A stretch of 64,000 bases of DNA from an uncultured Bacillota bacterium (GTDB lineage: Bacteria > Bacillota_I > Bacilli_A > RF39 > UBA660). Shown piece by piece: positions 3,119-58,443 of the stretch; the first letter of the stretch is position 1, and each line of letters starts with the position of its first letter. Both the position numbers and the translations under genes were made by a program. Under the pieces are notes generated by a model, which was not told the origin of the DNA, searched no databases, and was given only the letters and a program-made list of their open reading frames with translations. The DNA lies in assembly GCA_946611635.1 (NCBI GenBank), contig CAMODW010000003.1:2364-66363 (forward strand), read 5' to 3'.

Positions 3119-3193
3119 TGGTGCCGACTGCCGGATTTGAACCAGCGACCTACGCGTTACGAGGGCGTTGCACTACCACTGTGCTAAGTCGGC
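3119..3193 (-). tRNA. tRNA-Thr (anticodon CGU)
   Basis: Reverse complement folds as a cloverleaf: GCCGACT acceptor, GCAC/GTGC D-stem with AGTGGTA loop, anticodon loop CTCGTAA, T-arm GCTGG-TTCAAAT-CCGGC, encoded CCA. There is one C-C mismatch at the base of the anticodon stem. Confidence 0.85.
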
Positions 3194-3314
3194 ATATATG
3201 AATTATACTATAAAAGTATTATTTTTTCATTATAATAATTAATAATTTATCTTTGAATAATGGTTTATATGGTATAATAAATTTGTTCAATTGTTTTTAA
3301 AAGGGAGATTTGTT

Positions 3315-3704
3315 ATGTTTAATGAAGATATTGAGATAGCTAAGAAAGCAAGATTAAATGCCCATTCACCATATGGTAAATATTTCGTTGGGGCATGTTT
3401 AAGATGCAAAGATGGTAGTGTTTATATGGGATGCAATATTGAAAATCATGGAATTCAATCTATATGTGCGGAAAGAACAGCTTTTGTTAAAGCTATATCA
3501 GAAGGTAAGAAAGAGTTTGAATCGATAGCGGTAGTTGGTGCACCTATGGGAGAAGAACCAAGTACAAAATGTCTACCTTGTGGATATTGTAGACAATTTA
3601 TGAGTGAGTTTATTGATGAGGATTTTAAGTTTATTCTTGAAGATAATGGAGAGATTGTTACTTATTCACTAGATGATTTATTACCTAATAGATTTGATTT
3701 TTAG
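3315..3704 (+). CDS. cdd: Cytidine deaminase
   Basis: CAERTA and CLPCGYCRQFM zinc-binding motifs. Size is about 130 aa. The ATG at 3315 is preceded by AAGGGAG. Confidence 0.85.
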   Translation: MFNEDIEIAKKARLNAHSPYGKYFVGACLRCKDGSVYMGCNIENHGIQSICAERTAFVKAISEGKKEFESIAVVGAPMGEEPSTKCLPCGYCRQFMSEFIDEDFKFILEDNGEIVTYSLDDLLPNRFDF

Positions 3705-3787: not shown

Positions 3788-4155
3788 TGGTGGAGTAGAG
3801 GAGAGTCGAACTCCTGTCCATAGTATCCTACTATACAAAATCTACAAGTTTAGTTAGATTTATTATTTCATTAAAGCGACGGCTATAACGTACCAACATC
3901 TTTAACTAGTCTAAATATTATTCGTTAGTATATCTTAGACTACATACTAGTATAATCTGTAAATATTAACCCTTATTTTATCCTACAGATAAAAATAAAT
4001 AAGAGTGCTCCGAACCTATTCTATTAGGCAAATGCTAAAGCATTTGGAGCGAAACCATAATTAGTTTCGTCATTTAATTTTAATTTTGAATTTTAGGTAT
4101 TCCTACCACTTGCATTCATACTTAGGAGTACTATGTCGAAACCATTTACTACCCC
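3788..4155 (-). ncRNA. ssrA: tmRNA (SsrA); predicted tag (A)DETNYGFAPNALAFA
   Basis: Minus-strand 5' end is GGGGTAGTAAATGGTTTCGACATAG. The 3' end is AGGAG-TTCGACT-CTCCT-CTACTCC-ACCA. The acceptor stem has the G3-U wobble used by AlaRS. The internal frame GAC GAA ACT ... GCA TTT GCC TAA TAG lies at 4071..4021. Confidence 0.9.
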
Positions 4156-16609: not shown

Positions 16610-18691
16610 ATGAATTATTTAGAAGAATTAAATGATAAACAAATAGAAGCAGTTATTCATGTTGATGGCCCTTGTTTGGTGTTAGCCGGAGCTGGGTCTG
16701 GTAAGACTAAAGTTCTTACTACAAGGATTGCTAGATTGATAGATTGTGGAATTCCATCATATAATATATTAGCAATAACTTTTACTAATAAAGCAGCTAA
16801 GGAAATGAAGGATAGATTAGAAAGAATTGTCCCTGGCAATTATGCTTTTGTTGGTACGTTTCACTCACTTGGTGTTAGAATTTTAAGAGAAAATGCAAGT
16901 GTGTTAGGTTATGATAAGAATTATTCGATAATTGATAGTGATGATGCTTTATCTATTATTAAAAAAATAATGAAAGAAAAGACATATATATCTAAAGATA
17001 TTACACCATCATATGTTAGAAATAAAATTAGTAGTATAAAAAACGATATGTTATCAGATAATGAAATAGATAATTATTTTTCGTCTGGAAATGATTCAAT
17101 AGTAAAGGATATTTATTATGAATATCAAGCTATATTAAGGAAAAATAATTCTGTAGATTTTGATGATTTATTATTATTACCTGTAAAGCTTTTTATGGAA
17201 CATAAGGATGTATTAGAAAGCTATCAAGATAAATATAAATATATATTAGTAGATGAGTATCAGGATACTAATGAAGTACAATATAAATTGTCTAAATTAT
17301 TAGCTAGTAAATATAAAAATATATTTGTTGTAGGTGATCCTGATCAATCTATTTATATGTTTAGAGGGGCTAATTTTAGAAACATATTGAATTTTGAAAG
17401 AGATTATAAAAATGCAAAGGTTATTTCATTGGAGGAAAACTATAGGTCTACTAATAATATATTAGAAGCAGCTAATTCTGTTATAAAAAATAATAAAGAA
17501 CGAAAAGAAAAGAATTTATGGAGTAATAAAGGCGAAGGTAAAAAAATCAAATATTTAAGAGCTTATGATGGGAAACATGAAATACAGCTAGTATTAGATG
17601 AAATAAAAAGAATAAAAGATGAATATGATTATAATGATATAAGTGTTTTATATAGAACTAATGCTCAAGCAAGGCTTGTTGAAGAAATGTTTTTGAAAGC
17701 TAATATTCCATATAAAGTAGTAGGAAGTTATTATTTCTATAATAGAAAGGAAATTAAAGATTTAATATGTTATTTAAGATTAATACTAAATAAAGATGAT
17801 GAAATAAGTTTACTTCGAGTAATTAATGTACCTAAACGTGGTATAGGAGAAGCTACTATTAAGAAAATAGAAGAAACAGCTAGGGATAATAATATATCTA
17901 TGTTTGAAGCTATATCAAAGGGTAAAGAATTAGGATTTAAAAACTTGATATTTGAACTTATAAAAGATTCTGAAGAATTATCTTTAACTGATTTGGTTGA
18001 AGATATTTTAAGTAAAACTGGTATAAGAGCAGAATATGAAAGTAATAAAAATCTAGAAAATGAGTTAAGGTTAGATAACTTAGAAGAGTTTAAATCTATT
18101 ACGAAAACTTTTGAAGAAAGAACAGGTTCTGTCTCATTAGAAGATTTTTTGGAAGAGATATCTTTAATAGCTGATATATCTGAGCATCGTGATGATAGTG
18201 ATGCTGTAACTTTAATGACTATGCATAGTGCAAAAGGATTAGAATTTAAAGTTGTATTCTTAGTTGGAATGGAAGATGGTATTTTTCCACATCAAAATGC
18301 TTTTTTTGAATCTCAAGGATTAGAAGAAGAAAGACGTCTTTGTTATGTTGCGATTACAAGGGCTAAAGAAAGACTATATATAAGTAATGCTAAAAGAAGA
18401 ATGTTATATGGAAAAGATGTTGTTAATCCACCTAGTCGTTTTATAAAAGAAATTGATGAGGATTTACTAGAAGTAGAAAACAAGAATATGTTTGAAGGAG
18501 AAAAAATAGATAAGAAAAAGTATTATTCTGATGATGTTGTTGATTATAAAGATGGAGATATAATAAATCATGATGTCTATGGAAAAGGTGTTGTTGTTAG
18601 TATAAATGGTGATATAATAACAGTAGCTTTTAATAAAAAGTATGGCATTAAAAAATTATTAAAGAATTATAAAGGAATAACTAAAGAATAG
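16610..18691 (+). CDS. pcrA: ATP-dependent DNA helicase PcrA (UvrD/Rep family)
   Basis: AGAGSGKT Walker A, VDEYQDTN, and YRSTNNIL motifs. 693 aa. Confidence 0.9.
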   Translation: MNYLEELNDKQIEAVIHVDGPCLVLAGAGSGKTKVLTTRIARLIDCGIPSYNILAITFTNKAAKEMKDRLERIVPGNYAFVGTFHSLGVRILRENASVLGYDKNYSIIDSDDALSIIKKIMKEKTYISKDITPSYVRNKISSIKNDMLSDNEIDNYFSSGNDSIVKDIYYEYQAILRKNNSVDFDDLLLLPVKLFMEHKDVLESYQDKYKYILVDEYQDTNEVQYKLSKLLASKYKNIFVVGDPDQSIYMFRGANFRNILNFERDYKNAKVISLEENYRSTNNILEAANSVIKNNKERKEKNLWSNKGEGKKIKYLRAYDGKHEIQLVLDEIKRIKDEYDYNDISVLYRTNAQARLVEEMFLKANIPYKVVGSYYFYNRKEIKDLICYLRLILNKDDEISLLRVINVPKRGIGEATIKKIEETARDNNISMFEAISKGKELGFKNLIFELIKDSEELSLTDLVEDILSKTGIRAEYESNKNLENELRLDNLEEFKSITKTFEERTGSVSLEDFLEEISLIADISEHRDDSDAVTLMTMHSAKGLEFKVVFLVGMEDGIFPHQNAFFESQGLEEERRLCYVAITRAKERLYISNAKRRMLYGKDVVNPPSRFIKEIDEDLLEVENKNMFEGEKIDKKKYYSDDVVDYKDGDIINHDVYGKGVVVSINGDIITVAFNKKYGIKKLLKNYKGITKE

Positions 18692-35651: not shown

Positions 35652-35725
35652 GCAGGTGTAGTTTAATGGTAGAGCTTCAGCCTTCCAAGCTGATAACGTG
35701 GGTTCGATTCCCATCACCTGCTCCA
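35652..35725 (+). tRNA. tRNA-Gly (anticodon UCC)
   Basis: GCAGGTG acceptor, anticodon loop CTTCCAA, T-arm GTGGG-TTCGATT-CCCAT, encoded CCA. Upstream is TTGCAT-16-TATAAT. Confidence 0.9.
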
Positions 35726-55115: not shown

Positions 55116-56102
55116 ATGACATTTAAAATAGGTAATATTGAATTGAAAAATAGGATTGTATTAGCTCCTATGGCTGGTATTTCTAATACTTCGTATAGAA
55201 AGATTATAAAGGAAATGGGAGCTGGACTTATATATGCAGAAATGGTTTCTGACAAGGCTATAATGTATGGAAATGAAAAAACTATTGAACTATTAAAAAT
55301 GGATGACTTTGAAAGGCCTATTGCTCAACAGATATTTGGTAGTGACGTAGAATCTTTTGTTAAAGCTGCTACATTTATTGAACAACATATGCACCCTGAT
55401 ATAATAGATATTAATATGGGGTGTCCAGTTCCTAAAGTTGCTGTTAAAGCGCAAGCGGGGAGTGCACTTTTAAAAAATCCTCATAAAGTATATGAAATAG
55501 TAAAAGCGGTTGTAGAAGCTGTCTCTGTGCCGGTAACAGTTAAAATTAGAAGTGGATGGGATAGTAAACATATTAATGCTGTAGAAGTTGCAAAAGCTTG
55601 TGAAGAGGCAGGTGCTTCAGCAATAACAGTTCATGGAAGAACAAGGGAACAGGGATATAGTGGTAAGGCTGATTGGAACATTATTAAACAAGTTAAAGAG
55701 ATGGTTAAAATACCAGTGATAGGTAATGGAGATGTTACAAGTCCATATTTAGCAAAAAAAATGATAGATGAAACTGGTTGTGATGCTGTTATGATTGGAC
55801 GTGGAGTTTTGGGTAATCCGTGGCTCATAAAACAGTGTGTGGAATATTTAGATAACGGCAAGGAACCTAAAGAGGTATCATTTGAAGAAAAAGTATTAAT
55901 GATGAAAAGACATTATCAATTATTATGTGAGGATAAAAATGAGAAAGTGGCGCTTCTTGAGATACGAAGTCATATTCTTTGGTATTTGAAAGGTATGCCG
56001 AATTCTAAAGAAATGAAGAATAAAATAATGGCATGTAAAAGTAGTGAAGATATATTTAATTCTTTAGATTATTATTTAAGCAATATAAAGGAACTAGTGT
56101 AA
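55116..56102 (+). CDS. dus: tRNA-dihydrouridine synthase
   Basis: LAPMAGISN, DINMGCP and TVHGRT motifs. Confidence 0.85.
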   Translation: MTFKIGNIELKNRIVLAPMAGISNTSYRKIIKEMGAGLIYAEMVSDKAIMYGNEKTIELLKMDDFERPIAQQIFGSDVESFVKAATFIEQHMHPDIIDINMGCPVPKVAVKAQAGSALLKNPHKVYEIVKAVVEAVSVPVTVKIRSGWDSKHINAVEVAKACEEAGASAITVHGRTREQGYSGKADWNIIKQVKEMVKIPVIGNGDVTSPYLAKKMIDETGCDAVMIGRGVLGNPWLIKQCVEYLDNGKEPKEVSFEEKVLMMKRHYQLLCEDKNEKVALLEIRSHILWYLKGMPNSKEMKNKIMACKSSEDIFNSLDYYLSNIKELV

Positions 56103-57218
56103 TTTTTTACTAGTTCCTTTTATATTTAAATATTGTTTATAGAATGTCTTTAAATTCTTGCCAGGAATAATTCCATAATTATGCAATGTATTTAAGATAT
56201 CTTCTTCATTATAACTTTCTATTCTTATTATTTGTTCTAGTATATTTAGAGCAGCATAACTATTTCTTTTATATAATAAGAATAATTCGATTGCTACTAA
56301 ATATGATGTGGCATAATTTACTAGATTATCTAATGGATAAAGTAATTCACCGTCGATATAGTCAGCATCTAATTTGTATTTTTCACGTATTATCTCTAGC
56401 GCCCTTTTTCTATCAGATATACCACTTAGTGTTGTCATATATTTAGAGTCTATATTGTTTAAGAAACCGTGATATACTGATATACTTGTCTCTTTCGCTC
56501 TTTTTATTTCGTCAAAATCATATTCGTTTTTATCTATTATATCCAGGCATAATAATTCAAACAAGATTGATTCAACTTCGTTAACAAAAGGATTTTTTAA
56601 ATGGCTTTCGTTAATAGAAGCACCGATTGCATGCCCATGTTCGTGAACTGATGAGGCAATATCATATGTTCCATTAAAGAGATACAAGTTTAAAAAAGCT
56701 TCATTTATTCCTTCGGGCCTTAATATGTCGCCTCCCCATGTATTATTGGTAGCTTTTGAAAAGTTTATATAGATGGCTCCAGTTTGATAATATTCATTAT
56801 ATTTTTCTAAGTATATGCCGCCAATATAATTATAGAAATCATTTGTTGCTGTGATGATTTTTTCTTTTGGTACTATTATGTTTGAAGCTTCAGCCCTTAG
56901 ATCGATCCCGTTACTAACAATATAATTGTTTGCATCTAATAATATTGGTATTGTTTGTATTGATTTTTCAAAAAAGTTTCTATCAGCAATAGCTACAGAT
57001 GAAAAACTTGGCTTTTTGTAGCGCTTATGGAAAGTGCTTATGAATTCTTGATAAGATTTTATAGTTTTGTATAGTGCCATTTTTTCTTCTTGTGTTTTGG
57101 CTTTCTTAAGTAATTCTTGATAATGATGTAATTTTTCTTTTAAAGTATTTTCAGTCCATGTTTTAGCTTTCATATTATTTCGCATCCTTTTTTGAATTGA
57201 CGGTTTGTATACTATCAT
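56094..57218 (-). CDS. Zinc metallopeptidase (HExxH; M3/oligoendopeptidase-like, short)
   Basis: HEHGH motif. 374 aa. The 3' end overlaps the dus 3' end within the hairpin GGAACTAGT...ACTAGTTCC. Confidence 0.55.
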   Translation of the reverse strand: MIVYKPSIQKRMRNNMKAKTWTENTLKEKLHHYQELLKKAKTQEEKMALYKTIKSYQEFISTFHKRYKKPSFSSVAIADRNFFEKSIQTIPILLDANNYIVSNGIDLRAEASNIIVPKEKIITATNDFYNYIGGIYLEKYNEYYQTGAIYINFSKATNNTWGGDILRPEGINEAFLNLYLFNGTYDIASSVHEHGHAIGASINESHLKNPFVNEVESILFELLCLDIIDKNEYDFDEIKRAKETSISVYHGFLNNIDSKYMTTLSGISDRKRALEIIREKYKLDADYIDGELLYPLDNLVNYATSYLVAIELFLLYKRNSYAALNILEQIIRIESYNEEDILNTLHNYGIIPGKNLKTFYKQYLNIKGTSKKLH

Positions 57219-57254
57219 AATGTTAACAATTTATCAAATCTTACATTTTTTTAA

Positions 57255-57283
57255 TTGACTAAATAATGTATTAAGTATATACT
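57255..57283 (+). promoter_or_regulatory. Sigma-A-type promoter facing the ORF-free region
   Basis: TTGACT (57255-57260), 17-nt spacer, TATACT (57278-57283). Confidence 0.55.
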
Positions 57284-57289
57284 TAATAT

Positions 57290-58358
57290 AGTAAGGAGGT
57301 ATACAAAGGATGGCTTAATTATTGCCATAAGATGTATATAGGGCATAAACTTGAGATAAAGTGAGAAATAATTGAAAGATTATTCCATTTGTGAAATAGA
57401 ATTTTATGGTGATATAGGTGGATGTTAAGAATGCAAACTTAATTGAAGCTGAATTTTTGAACTTGAAAAAGTTGTTATATTTGCAGTGTAATGGCTTTGA
57501 TGGTTCGTAACTTGTAACATGTATGTACGCAAAGCATATTTGTATATTAGTAATTGTTTACTAAGCCCCCAAGTTACATTCCAGCATATTTATATGTCTG
57601 AAGAGGATATGTCATTATGATGTATTCTGGTCATCTAATGTGAATAGTTTGTTGGTTTTTAGATTCATCACCAACAGATTATTATTGAGAAATCAATGTA
57701 TCGAATTACCCTTGTTATGTTATCAATAGTTAGCATTTTCTATTTACCCAATATGGGGTGATAATATGATAGTGAAATTGATGGATGGCTTTCGTATTAG
57801 CTTGGTTAATTTTTGTGAATTATCCACGTATACGTTATGCATTTAAAGATCATTTTAAGAATTTTGTTATAACTATCTTATAGGAATTATTATTTGAGTT
57901 TCTGAATTTTATTAGATGATAGAACTCTATAATCTGGGAATATAAGGCAAGTGTAGCGATTGGATTAATCTGACTGCGTTTAATAATTACGGAGTCTTAA
58001 ACTTGTTTTCGAAATTGGTCAAGCAATCCAAGCGTTGAGTTCGATTATTAATGGTTGATCCCCTTATGGTCGAAACAATAAACTATATCGTGTGAGCTCG
58101 TATAATAAAAATATTAGCGATGAATTGGAGAACTCTTATACAACAGTATAGTTAAGCGTTTATGTAATAAATATATGAATAGAGATGAGTGATGTCGTCA
58201 ATGTTAGTGAATAACTATCAAATAGTATGTCATATTCGTCTTGCTATGCGGAAGTTTATTGTTAAACTACAAATGCGTTTTTATTAGTCTAGCTATTTTG
58301 TATTAGATACTTAATAGCTAGATAATGTGAAGAGAATGATTTATAATTCTCTTTTTTT
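57290..58358 (+). ncRNA. Candidate large non-coding transcript (~1.07 kb), class unknown
   Basis: The track has no ORF of 60 aa or more on any frame between 57219 and 58443. The region is bounded by the promoter above and the intrinsic terminator at 58331-58358. Its G+C looks higher than usual for intergenic DNA here. Confidence 0.4.
58331..58358 (+). terminator. Intrinsic terminator closing the ORF-free transcription unit
   Basis: AGAGAAT-GATTTATA-ATTCTCT followed by T7. Confidence 0.7.
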
Positions 58359-58359
58359 A

Positions 58360-58388
58360 TTGCTATAATTTTTGACGAAGTGTATAAT
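58360..58388 (+). promoter_or_regulatory. Sigma-A-type promoter of the FIST/aldehyde dehydrogenase operon
   Basis: TTGCTA, 17-nt spacer, TATAAT. Confidence 0.55.
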
Positions 58389-58443
58389 TAAAATAGAGAA
58401 CTATAGAATAGTTCGATAATTGTAAGAATAAGGAGGAATTAAA

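Follow-up and report, generated by a model that had tools for sequence, protein, structure and literature searches.

A probable single-copy gene for a large structured non-coding RNA in a clade of uncultured gut and rumen Bacilli

Introduction

What kind of gene, if any, occupies the 1225 nucleotides (nt) between positions 57219 and 58443 of a 64,000-nt stretch of DNA from an uncultured Bacillota bacterium (contig CAMODW010000003.1; this whole stretch is hereafter termed the window)? First-pass annotation, made from the letters alone, proposed that this region contains a promoter-to-terminator unit devoid of open reading frames (ORFs) and interpreted it as a candidate large non-coding RNA, with a decayed pseudogene or several small RNA or peptide genes as alternatives. 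The analysis described here indicates that positions 57290-58358 of the forward (+) strand very probably constitute a stand-alone gene for a non-coding RNA of ~1,070 nt with an elaborate, evolutionarily maintained fold. With similar assurance, the RNA family is considered to be previously uncatalogued and its hosts to form a clade of uncultured gut and rumen Bacilli of low G+C content. To our knowledge, besides ribosomal RNA there are very few bacterial RNAs of more than 500 nt with conserved, intricate folds, namely RNase P, tmRNA, group I/II introns, OLE, GOLLD and ROOL. Large structured bacterial RNAs have each either revealed new biochemistry or remained a prominent open problem.

The locus and its boundaries

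As the first-pass annotation had recognised, the region is the longest ORF-free stretch of the window: the gap between ORFs of at least 100 amino acids (aa) at 57219-58443 measures 1225 nt, compared with 356 nt for the next internal gap. All six frames are interrupted here, by 27-44 stop codons each, and the longest ORF inside the gap is 35 aa. A window-wide computation gives a G+C content of 29.3% for the element, 22.3% for other intergenic DNA and 28.4% for coding DNA. The elevated G+C described previously therefore stands as an enrichment over intergenic DNA, whereas the hand counts of 33-38% represent the top of a range that runs from 17 to 37% in 60-nt windows (mean 30%).

The near-consensus promoter that had been proposed was recovered by a promoter scan with 10/12 matches. 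This sigma-70-type promoter (57255-57283, + strand) comprises a -35 box, TTGACT (57255-57260), a 17-nt spacer and a -10 box, TATACT (57278-57283), and the boxes TTGACT and TATACT/TATAAT are retained in nearly all aligned copies. At the other end, the anticipated intrinsic terminator is present on the + strand at 58330-58358, where a stem (58330-58338/58344-58352; AGAGAAU...AUUCUCU) is followed by a U7 tract ending at 58358; the T-run after the stem is found on the + strand only. A terminator scan returned no flag at 58330-58358, an omission ascribed to the G-C-poor stem, which has fewer than three G-C pairs. Nevertheless, the stem covaries in an alignment of 29 copies (helix 37; nine pairs, six with double changes, 96.4% of cells paired). 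From these two signals, a non-coding primary transcript of ~1,070 nt is predicted on the + strand, starting near 57290 and ending at 58358. Immediately beyond it, the promoter scan located a promoter-like site for the downstream FIST operon (TTGCTA-17-TATAAT, 58360-58388), in agreement with the separate promoter envisaged there.

Conservation and coding capacity

Related loci, 46 in all, were found in uncultured low-GC gut and rumen Bacilli (‘Ca. Coprovivens’-like), and the element is present in exactly one copy in each of the resulting 47 sequences (the 46 loci and the window). When one genome per GTDB species is considered, the closest relatives of the FIST protein belong to metagenome-assembled genomes from rumen and gut labelled ‘Erysipelotrichaceae/Tenericutes/Bacilli’, the only named relative being ‘Candidatus Coprovivens excrementavium’, which is classed as Bacilli incertae sedis. 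Contigs reached via more distant FIST proteins (61-67% amino-acid identity) also carry the element and, similarly, when metagenomes were scanned with a degenerate 30-mer taken from the best-conserved block, 31 contigs were obtained, all 31 of which contain it. Inheritance is vertical, with a single copy on the chromosome that occupies the same syntenic position wherever flanks are present. Searches with blastn of a phage collection (50,697 records) and of a plasmid collection gave no match to the element. A viral-contig origin was also considered and discarded, as a scan with an invariant 16-mer gave 35 loci of which none was homologous, indicating chance matches.

Conservation begins at the -35 box and stops at the terminator. 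Among species representatives, nucleotide identity is 67-87% for the element, 74-80% for dusB and 77-83% for the FIST operon; within the close clade the element is at least as conserved as its flanking genes, and elsewhere its identity is 63-70%. In the adjacent FIST gene, four-fold degenerate sites are saturated, with an identity of only 37-50%, whereas the RNA is 63-86% identical in the same genome pairs, which indicates that this non-protein-coding sequence is under strong purifying selection.

The element has no coding capacity. The homologous stretches in relatives contain no long ORF, their longest stop-free frames (at most 101 codons) being differently placed among copies, and no ORF of at least 12 codons is common to more than 19 of 30 copies, with lengths that vary. 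Pfam searches with the ten longest stop-free translated pieces returned nothing. A search for small conserved ORFs (at least 12 codons, 30 copies) was likewise empty, as were the six-frame translation, the relatives' ORFs and the Pfam searches when a pseudogene was sought.

Covariation of the fold

Conservation and covariation in relatives, among the checks that the first-pass annotation had named, proved favourable on both counts, with covariation that withstands shuffled, slid and hold-out controls. When 29 non-redundant copies, aligned by sequence only, were supplied to RNAalifold, 177 pairs were obtained, 89 of them with compensatory double changes. A ribosum-scored consensus of the 29 copies contains 258 pairs in 37 helices, and addition of six more distant copies brings the consensus to 39 helices. 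Standard pairs are formed by 94.2% of cells, compared with 84.8% in column shuffles and 35-47% when pairing partners are slid by 1-3 columns. Pairs changed on both sides number 126, as against 81.5±4.1 in shuffles (0/500 reach 126) and 48-61 in slid controls, and the covariation score is 0.348, as against 0.180 and 0.07-0.10, respectively. In the hold-out control, the structure derived from the 29 copies was applied to six distant copies outside the derivation set: 88.2% of cells pair (35-44% when slid), and at 63 pairs both nucleotides differ from those of the window yet pairing is retained (24-33 when slid).

Several features identify the + strand as the RNA. G-U accounts for 13.5% of paired cells and A-C for 1.5%, a nine-fold excess, and the folding energy of the 3' domain (domain II, see below) is -100 kcal/mol on the + strand compared with -60 on the - strand; together with the promoter and the one-sided U-tract, these point to transcription of this strand. 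Folded as single sequences, domain I is distinguished from its shuffles (z = -3.07) and domain II is not, as considered further below. The secondary structure is supported, as is one tertiary pairing, a pseudoknot described below.

Architecture of the RNA

In all likelihood the RNA folds into two closed domains, domain I (57291-57709; helices P0 and P1) and domain II (57787-58257), joined by a small linker; all features described here lie on the + strand. At the 5' end, the segment AUAGUAAGGAGGUAU (57288-57302) is almost invariant in 30 copies and provides the 5' strand of P0 (57291-57294 and 57298-57302), from which GGA is bulged out. P0 as a whole pairs 57291-57302 with 57698-57709 (96.9% of cells paired, 17-51% when slid). 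Inside it, the long-range helix P1 (57303-57314 with 57630-57641; 10/11 pairs covary) closes domain I by joining 57303 to 57641. The nine inner helices of domain I (57330-57339/57396-57404, 57343-45/57390-92, 57349-51/57360-62, 57363-72/57377-86, 57470-77/57489-96, 57508-14/57570-76, 57517-26/57534-43, 57547-53/57558-64 and 57579-88/57592-605) are 84-100% paired, with double changes in most. Beyond P1 lies the hairpin TGTTGGT...ACCAACA (57642-57683), noted previously as a local hairpin and now identified as a covarying helix (stem 57642-57656/57670-57683; 14 pairs, 10 covarying). A small hairpin (57684-87/57694-97) and the 3' strand of P0 (57698-57709) then complete the domain at 57684-57709.

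The segment AUAGUAAGGAGGUAU resembles a Shine-Dalgarno site, although no ORF follows it. Untranslated Shine-Dalgarno-like sequences near a 5' end that are free to bind the 30S subunit act as STAB-SD-type stabilisers, as in Bacillus cryIIIA-like cases. Here, AAGGAGG lies at about +4 to +10 and lacks a conserved ORF, but most of the segment is paired in P0 in 96.9% of cells, which weakens its candidacy as a free ribosome-binding stabiliser. Because the sequence is largely paired, a structural role in which the 5' end would be protected inside a helix appears more likely.

The linker element (57710-57774) is bounded by an outer helix (57710-25/57759-74), in which 13/15 pairs covary, and contains two inner hairpins (57726-29/57740-43 and 57747-49/57756-58). 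The 10-nt loop of the first of these, UUAGCAUUUU (57730-57739), is invariant, and the linker sequence TAGTTAGCATTTTCTA is invariant in the first seven copies and nearly so in 30. The pseudoknot emerged when stacked pairs that covary but do not belong to the nested structure were sought; in it, the hairpin loop 57664-57670 (UUCAUCA) pairs with the single-stranded junction 57779-57785 (UGAUGGA) in 97.5% of cells, with four pairs double-changed, thereby tying domain I to the linker. A second pseudoknot, between the loop GCAUUUUC (57733-57740) and GAAAUUG (57774-57780), was dropped: its two partners show almost no variation, and one of them overlaps the pseudoknot that is supported. An antisense seed role for the invariant loop was also examined and rejected, since no sensible pattern is apparent among the sites of the window that are complementary to it.

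Domain II (57787-58257) is closed by a helix pairing 57787-57801 with 58243-58257, within which five long-range helices are nested (57827-32/58172-77, 57838-42/58162-66, 57975-83/58152-60, 57991-98/58128-36 and 58024-38/58114-27). These are accompanied by local hairpins at 57804-09/57820-25, 58002-10/58014-23, 58039-42/58073-76, 58084-92/58097-104, 58137-41/58146-50, 58182-89/58194-201 and 58214-18/58222-26. This domain is the most conserved part of the RNA, with a highly conserved core (57975-58160) and a mean column identity of 97% at 58115-58144; many of its core pairs are constant or vary at a single position, from G-C to G-U. By comparison, the peripheral arm of domain II at 57851-57972 (57851-57882/57941-57972 and 57889-57904/57920-57933) is variable and shows the richest covariation.

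Ahead of the terminator region is a conserved 3' tail, AAACUACAAAUGC (58264-58276), in which AAAUGC is invariant in 30 copies. Between this tail and the terminator, a perfect 10-bp hairpin, UCUAGCUAUU ... AAUAGCUAGA (58288-58322), is restricted to the close clade (the window and loci L001-L003 and L022); its sequence differs in each copy yet is always self-complementary.

Natural variants and the tandem-module arm

The peripheral arm is expandable and appears to be dispensable. It is absent from L074 (5996-6922), which lacks the equivalent of 57851-57972. In a sister clade represented by L079-L082, about 690 nt of tandem modules are inserted at the tip of the arm (L079 2779-3487, L080 2828-3490, L081 2804-3491 and L082 1-302). 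The modules are about 44 nt in length, each carrying GGUGAAAUAG and UGGAUACAUAA, and L081 contains 11 exact occurrences of GTGAAATAG where 0.12 are expected. The array folds as repeated hairpins of ~75 nt, each with an internal loop of GUGAAAUAG and UGGAUACAU (z = -5.1). The window copy contains no array and has a single GTGAAATAG (57391-57399). The two sequence elements of the array loop nevertheless flank an internal loop in its domain I (UAGGGCAUAA at 57338-57347 and GUGAAAUAG at 57391-57399), and from this shared sequence the array looks like a multiplied copy of a native domain I motif. On the strand opposite the L081 array, the gene caller reports a spurious ORF of 117 aa (3164-3517). 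A different kind of variation is seen in L005 (4984-5870), which is devoid of the 5' sub-domain around 57315-57470 and retains P1 with a completely different, complementary sequence. Across copies, predicted transcript lengths extend from about 840 to about 1,640 nt.

Genomic neighbourhood

Gene order is maintained in every locus with long enough flanks and follows MIP, Hsp20, dusB, 0-3 divergent genes of 360-400 aa, the RNA, 0-3 lipoprotein genes of ~150 aa, FIST, (aldehyde dehydrogenase) and nrdD; in L003, another gene takes the place of the lipoprotein genes between the RNA and FIST. This single fixed locus, at which genes come and go on both sides, argues against the element being either a leader of the FIST operon or a 3' untranslated region of dusB.

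In the window, a gene of 374 aa (56094-57218, - strand) encoding a PepF-like gluzincin diverges from the RNA promoter. Its relatives occur in 0-3 tandem copies (e.g. L004 2313-4698, L026 878-4194 and L076 2474-5808) with pairwise identities of 16-22%, and constitute a family of fast-evolving paralogues with an invariant HExxH motif and a downstream Glu. The family has no Pfam or NCBIfam match but aligns weakly, at the profile level, with the catalytic region of oligoendopeptidase F (3sks_A, E=0.002). As an obligate partner of the RNA this protein was rejected, given its 0-3 copies and its absence from several carriers. The 3' ends of dusB (+, ends 56102) and of the PepF-like gene (-, ends 56094) converge and overlap by 9 nt, which leaves no room for a terminator between them. 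On the other side of the RNA, many relatives (e.g. L007 1123-2033, L025 and L012 6502-6969) possess one to three paralogous genes just past the RNA terminator, whose ~150-aa lipoproteins have a signal peptide, an L-x-G-C lipobox and an acidic C-terminal part; the window has none.

Alternative explanations

Could the element instead be a giant cis-acting leader, riboswitch- or attenuator-like, of the FIST-aldehyde dehydrogenase-nrdD operon, with the terminator as a regulated expression platform? It precedes FIST, in the same orientation, in all loci that include the downstream flank, and in the window its terminator is only 86 nt from the FIST start codon. Such a role is nonetheless improbable, as the promoter-like site at 58360-58388 lies past the terminator and FIST is separated from the terminator, in many relatives, by one to three lipoprotein genes or by a different gene, all preceded by a promoter-like sequence and a ribosome-binding site of their own. 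Furthermore, the size and two-domain architecture are beyond those of any known leader, and no antiterminator pairing for the terminator stem was seen, though no systematic search was made for one. The earlier view that this is its own transcription unit rather than a long leader is upheld, as conservation runs from promoter to terminator and genes intervene before FIST in some relatives. That the element is a highly divergent member of a known large family (OLE, ROOL, GOLLD, raiA, RNase P or an ORF-less group II intron) and escapes recognition by covariance models is quite improbable as well, despite the size class, ornateness, Bacillota host and rumen/gut origin that the element has in common with ROOL and OLE, and despite the tendency of AT-rich sequences to score poorly against such models. 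Rfam 15 (4227 families, including OLE, ROOL, GOLLD, HEARO, raiA, RNase P, tmRNA, 6S, SRP and intron models) gave no match inside the element when the whole window was scanned at gathering thresholds; at E<=10 the element region returned only two microRNA-type chance matches, and at E<=5 nine diverse homologues returned nothing inside the element. At none of these settings was there a match to the models of OLE (RF01071), ROOL (RF03087), GOLLD (RF01998), raiA (RF03072) or RNase P (RF00010/RF00011), which bears out the previous failure to relate the sequence to known RNA families, and full-text literature searches found no description of the RNA. In contrast, a tmRNA (3788-4155, - strand, 112.9 bits) and tRNA genes (3122-3193, - strand; 35652-35722, + strand) were readily recognised, demonstrating that the models detect standard RNA genes in this DNA. 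The element is also single-copy, chromosomal and syntenic, unlike the phage- or mobile-element-associated ROOL, GOLLD and introns. One borderline match elsewhere in the window (18293-18394, + strand; RF03531, ‘n00280, C. difficile sRNA included into helicase gene’; 66.3 bits against a gathering score of 65.2) falls within an ORF of 693 aa (16610-18691) in an organism other than C. difficile, and probably reflects conserved coding sequence rather than a small RNA.

The two remaining explanations are those put forward as alternatives in the first-pass annotation, and neither fares well. That the region comprises a cluster of several small genes, for small RNAs and/or micro-peptides, is suggested by short ORFs of 30-35 aa in the window copy and by the AAGGAGG at the 5' end, but it is very improbable given that no ORF of at least 12 codons is common to more than 19 of 30 copies, and in view of the conserved promoter and terminator being found only at the two ends. 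Moreover, covarying helices join residues 300-470 nt apart (57303/57641 and 57787/58257), which requires one continuous molecule. A decayed pseudogene or non-functional spacer would account for a long ORF-less stretch with coding-like G+C; it is, however, scarcely credible, since conservation far exceeds that of saturated synonymous sites, compensatory base changes are extensive, the translated pieces contain no protein signal or frame-shifted remnant, and every relative is also ORF-less here. Conservation in relatives, the lack of a conserved ORF and extensive covariation that survives its controls instead favour the large non-coding RNA originally suggested.

A number of points weigh against the reading of the locus as a gene for one large folded RNA. 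The transcript, its ends and its abundance are inferred, and the scaffold, multivalent-binding and catalytic roles considered below are hypothetical. The single-sequence fold of domain II in the window is no better than shuffles (z = -0.73), such that the case for this domain rests on covariation and conservation, and many of its core pairs never vary and are therefore uninformative. The shuffle control ignores phylogeny, i.e. it is not tree-aware, and prediction and scoring of the structure relied on the same kind of alignment, a circularity that the slid and hold-out controls mitigate without replacing R-scape. The sub-domains missing from L005 and L074 signify either that parts of the RNA are dispensable or that these copies are decaying. 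In addition, the carriers are all related and syntenic, and so the neighbourhood provides no functional clue.

Possible roles of the RNA

If the locus does encode a single large RNA, a tentative picture, drawn from the fold and its variants, is that of a stable structural RNA acting in trans, either as the scaffold of a ribonucleoprotein or as an RNA-only assembly. The invariant loops and junctions would represent contact or active sites, whilst the peripheral arm would serve as a platform, on which the repeated GUGAAAUAG / GGAUACAUAA internal-loop modules of the expanded variants could bind several copies of a partner. A catalytic role is also conceivable. A broader and more speculative proposal, which we put forward with considerable reserve, is that this RNA is the first representative of a novel class of giant RNAs in bacteria, of ~1.07 kb and up to ~1.6 kb, larger than GOLLD. 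Its members might function as lineage-specific housekeeping machines made of RNA, either ribozymes or self-assembling RNA/ribonucleoprotein particles, maintained in single copy clade-wide in uncultured, reduced-genome gut/rumen Bacilli, with an expandable arm that recruits many partner copies.

The RNA is longer than the orphan classes OLE, GOLLD and ROOL. As its secondary structure is well supported, and a tertiary contact, natural deletions and expansions and dozens of diverse sequences are available, it is amenable to cryo-electron microscopy, chemical probing and partner pull-downs. Its presence would also imply the existence, in uncultured host-associated Bacilli, of lineage-specific housekeeping RNAs that have been entirely missed by annotation pipelines.

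Comparison with known large RNAs

For the expanded arm only, a functional analogy may be drawn with the CsrB/RsmZ-type sponge RNAs, as the tandem hairpins of L079-L082 repeat one conserved motif. Such an arrangement, in which tandem hairpin modules display a single motif, is that of RNAs to which one protein binds in many copies. However, the motif here is not the GGA of CsrA sites, and the array has been inserted into one peripheral arm of a far larger conserved fold. Group II introns are also set apart: there is no Rfam match to them, no ORF and one syntenic copy per locus.

In size and ornateness the RNA is comparable with OLE, ROOL and GOLLD. GOLLD, at about 800 nt, is a multi-domain RNA and among the largest non-ribosomal structured RNAs of bacteria (PMC12286853). 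The RNA described here is likewise very large and multi-domain but, whereas GOLLD is phage-associated, it is chromosomal, ~1.07 kb in length and up to ~1.6 kb with the repeat arm, and matches neither the GOLLD model nor any of the phage records searched. ROOL is an ornate, non-coding RNA of rumen/gut origin with Bacillota or Mollicutes-like hosts (PMC5737381, PMC12286853), and origin, Bacillota host, ornate structure and lack of coding capacity are all features common to both RNAs. However, ROOL is about 580 nt in length, often resides in prophage or mobile contexts and forms RNA-only cages, whereas the present RNA is single-copy, syntenic and vertically inherited, with no phage or plasmid match.

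OLE is a large, highly conserved, multi-helix non-coding RNA whose function was long unassigned and which, as far as is known, forms the core of a ribonucleoprotein (PMC9723947, PMC10898510). It differs from the RNA of the window in its length (about 600 nt compared with ~1,070 nt), in its host lineage and in its company, as the neighbours here are MIP, Hsp20, DusB, PepF-like, FIST, Aldedh and NrdD rather than oapA/oapB-type partners. Despite these differences, both are large multi-helix non-coding RNAs present as one chromosomal copy in Bacillota, those that carry OLE being anaerobic or extremophilic, and it is OLE that the present RNA most resembles in its chromosomal, single-copy, lineage-wide behaviour.

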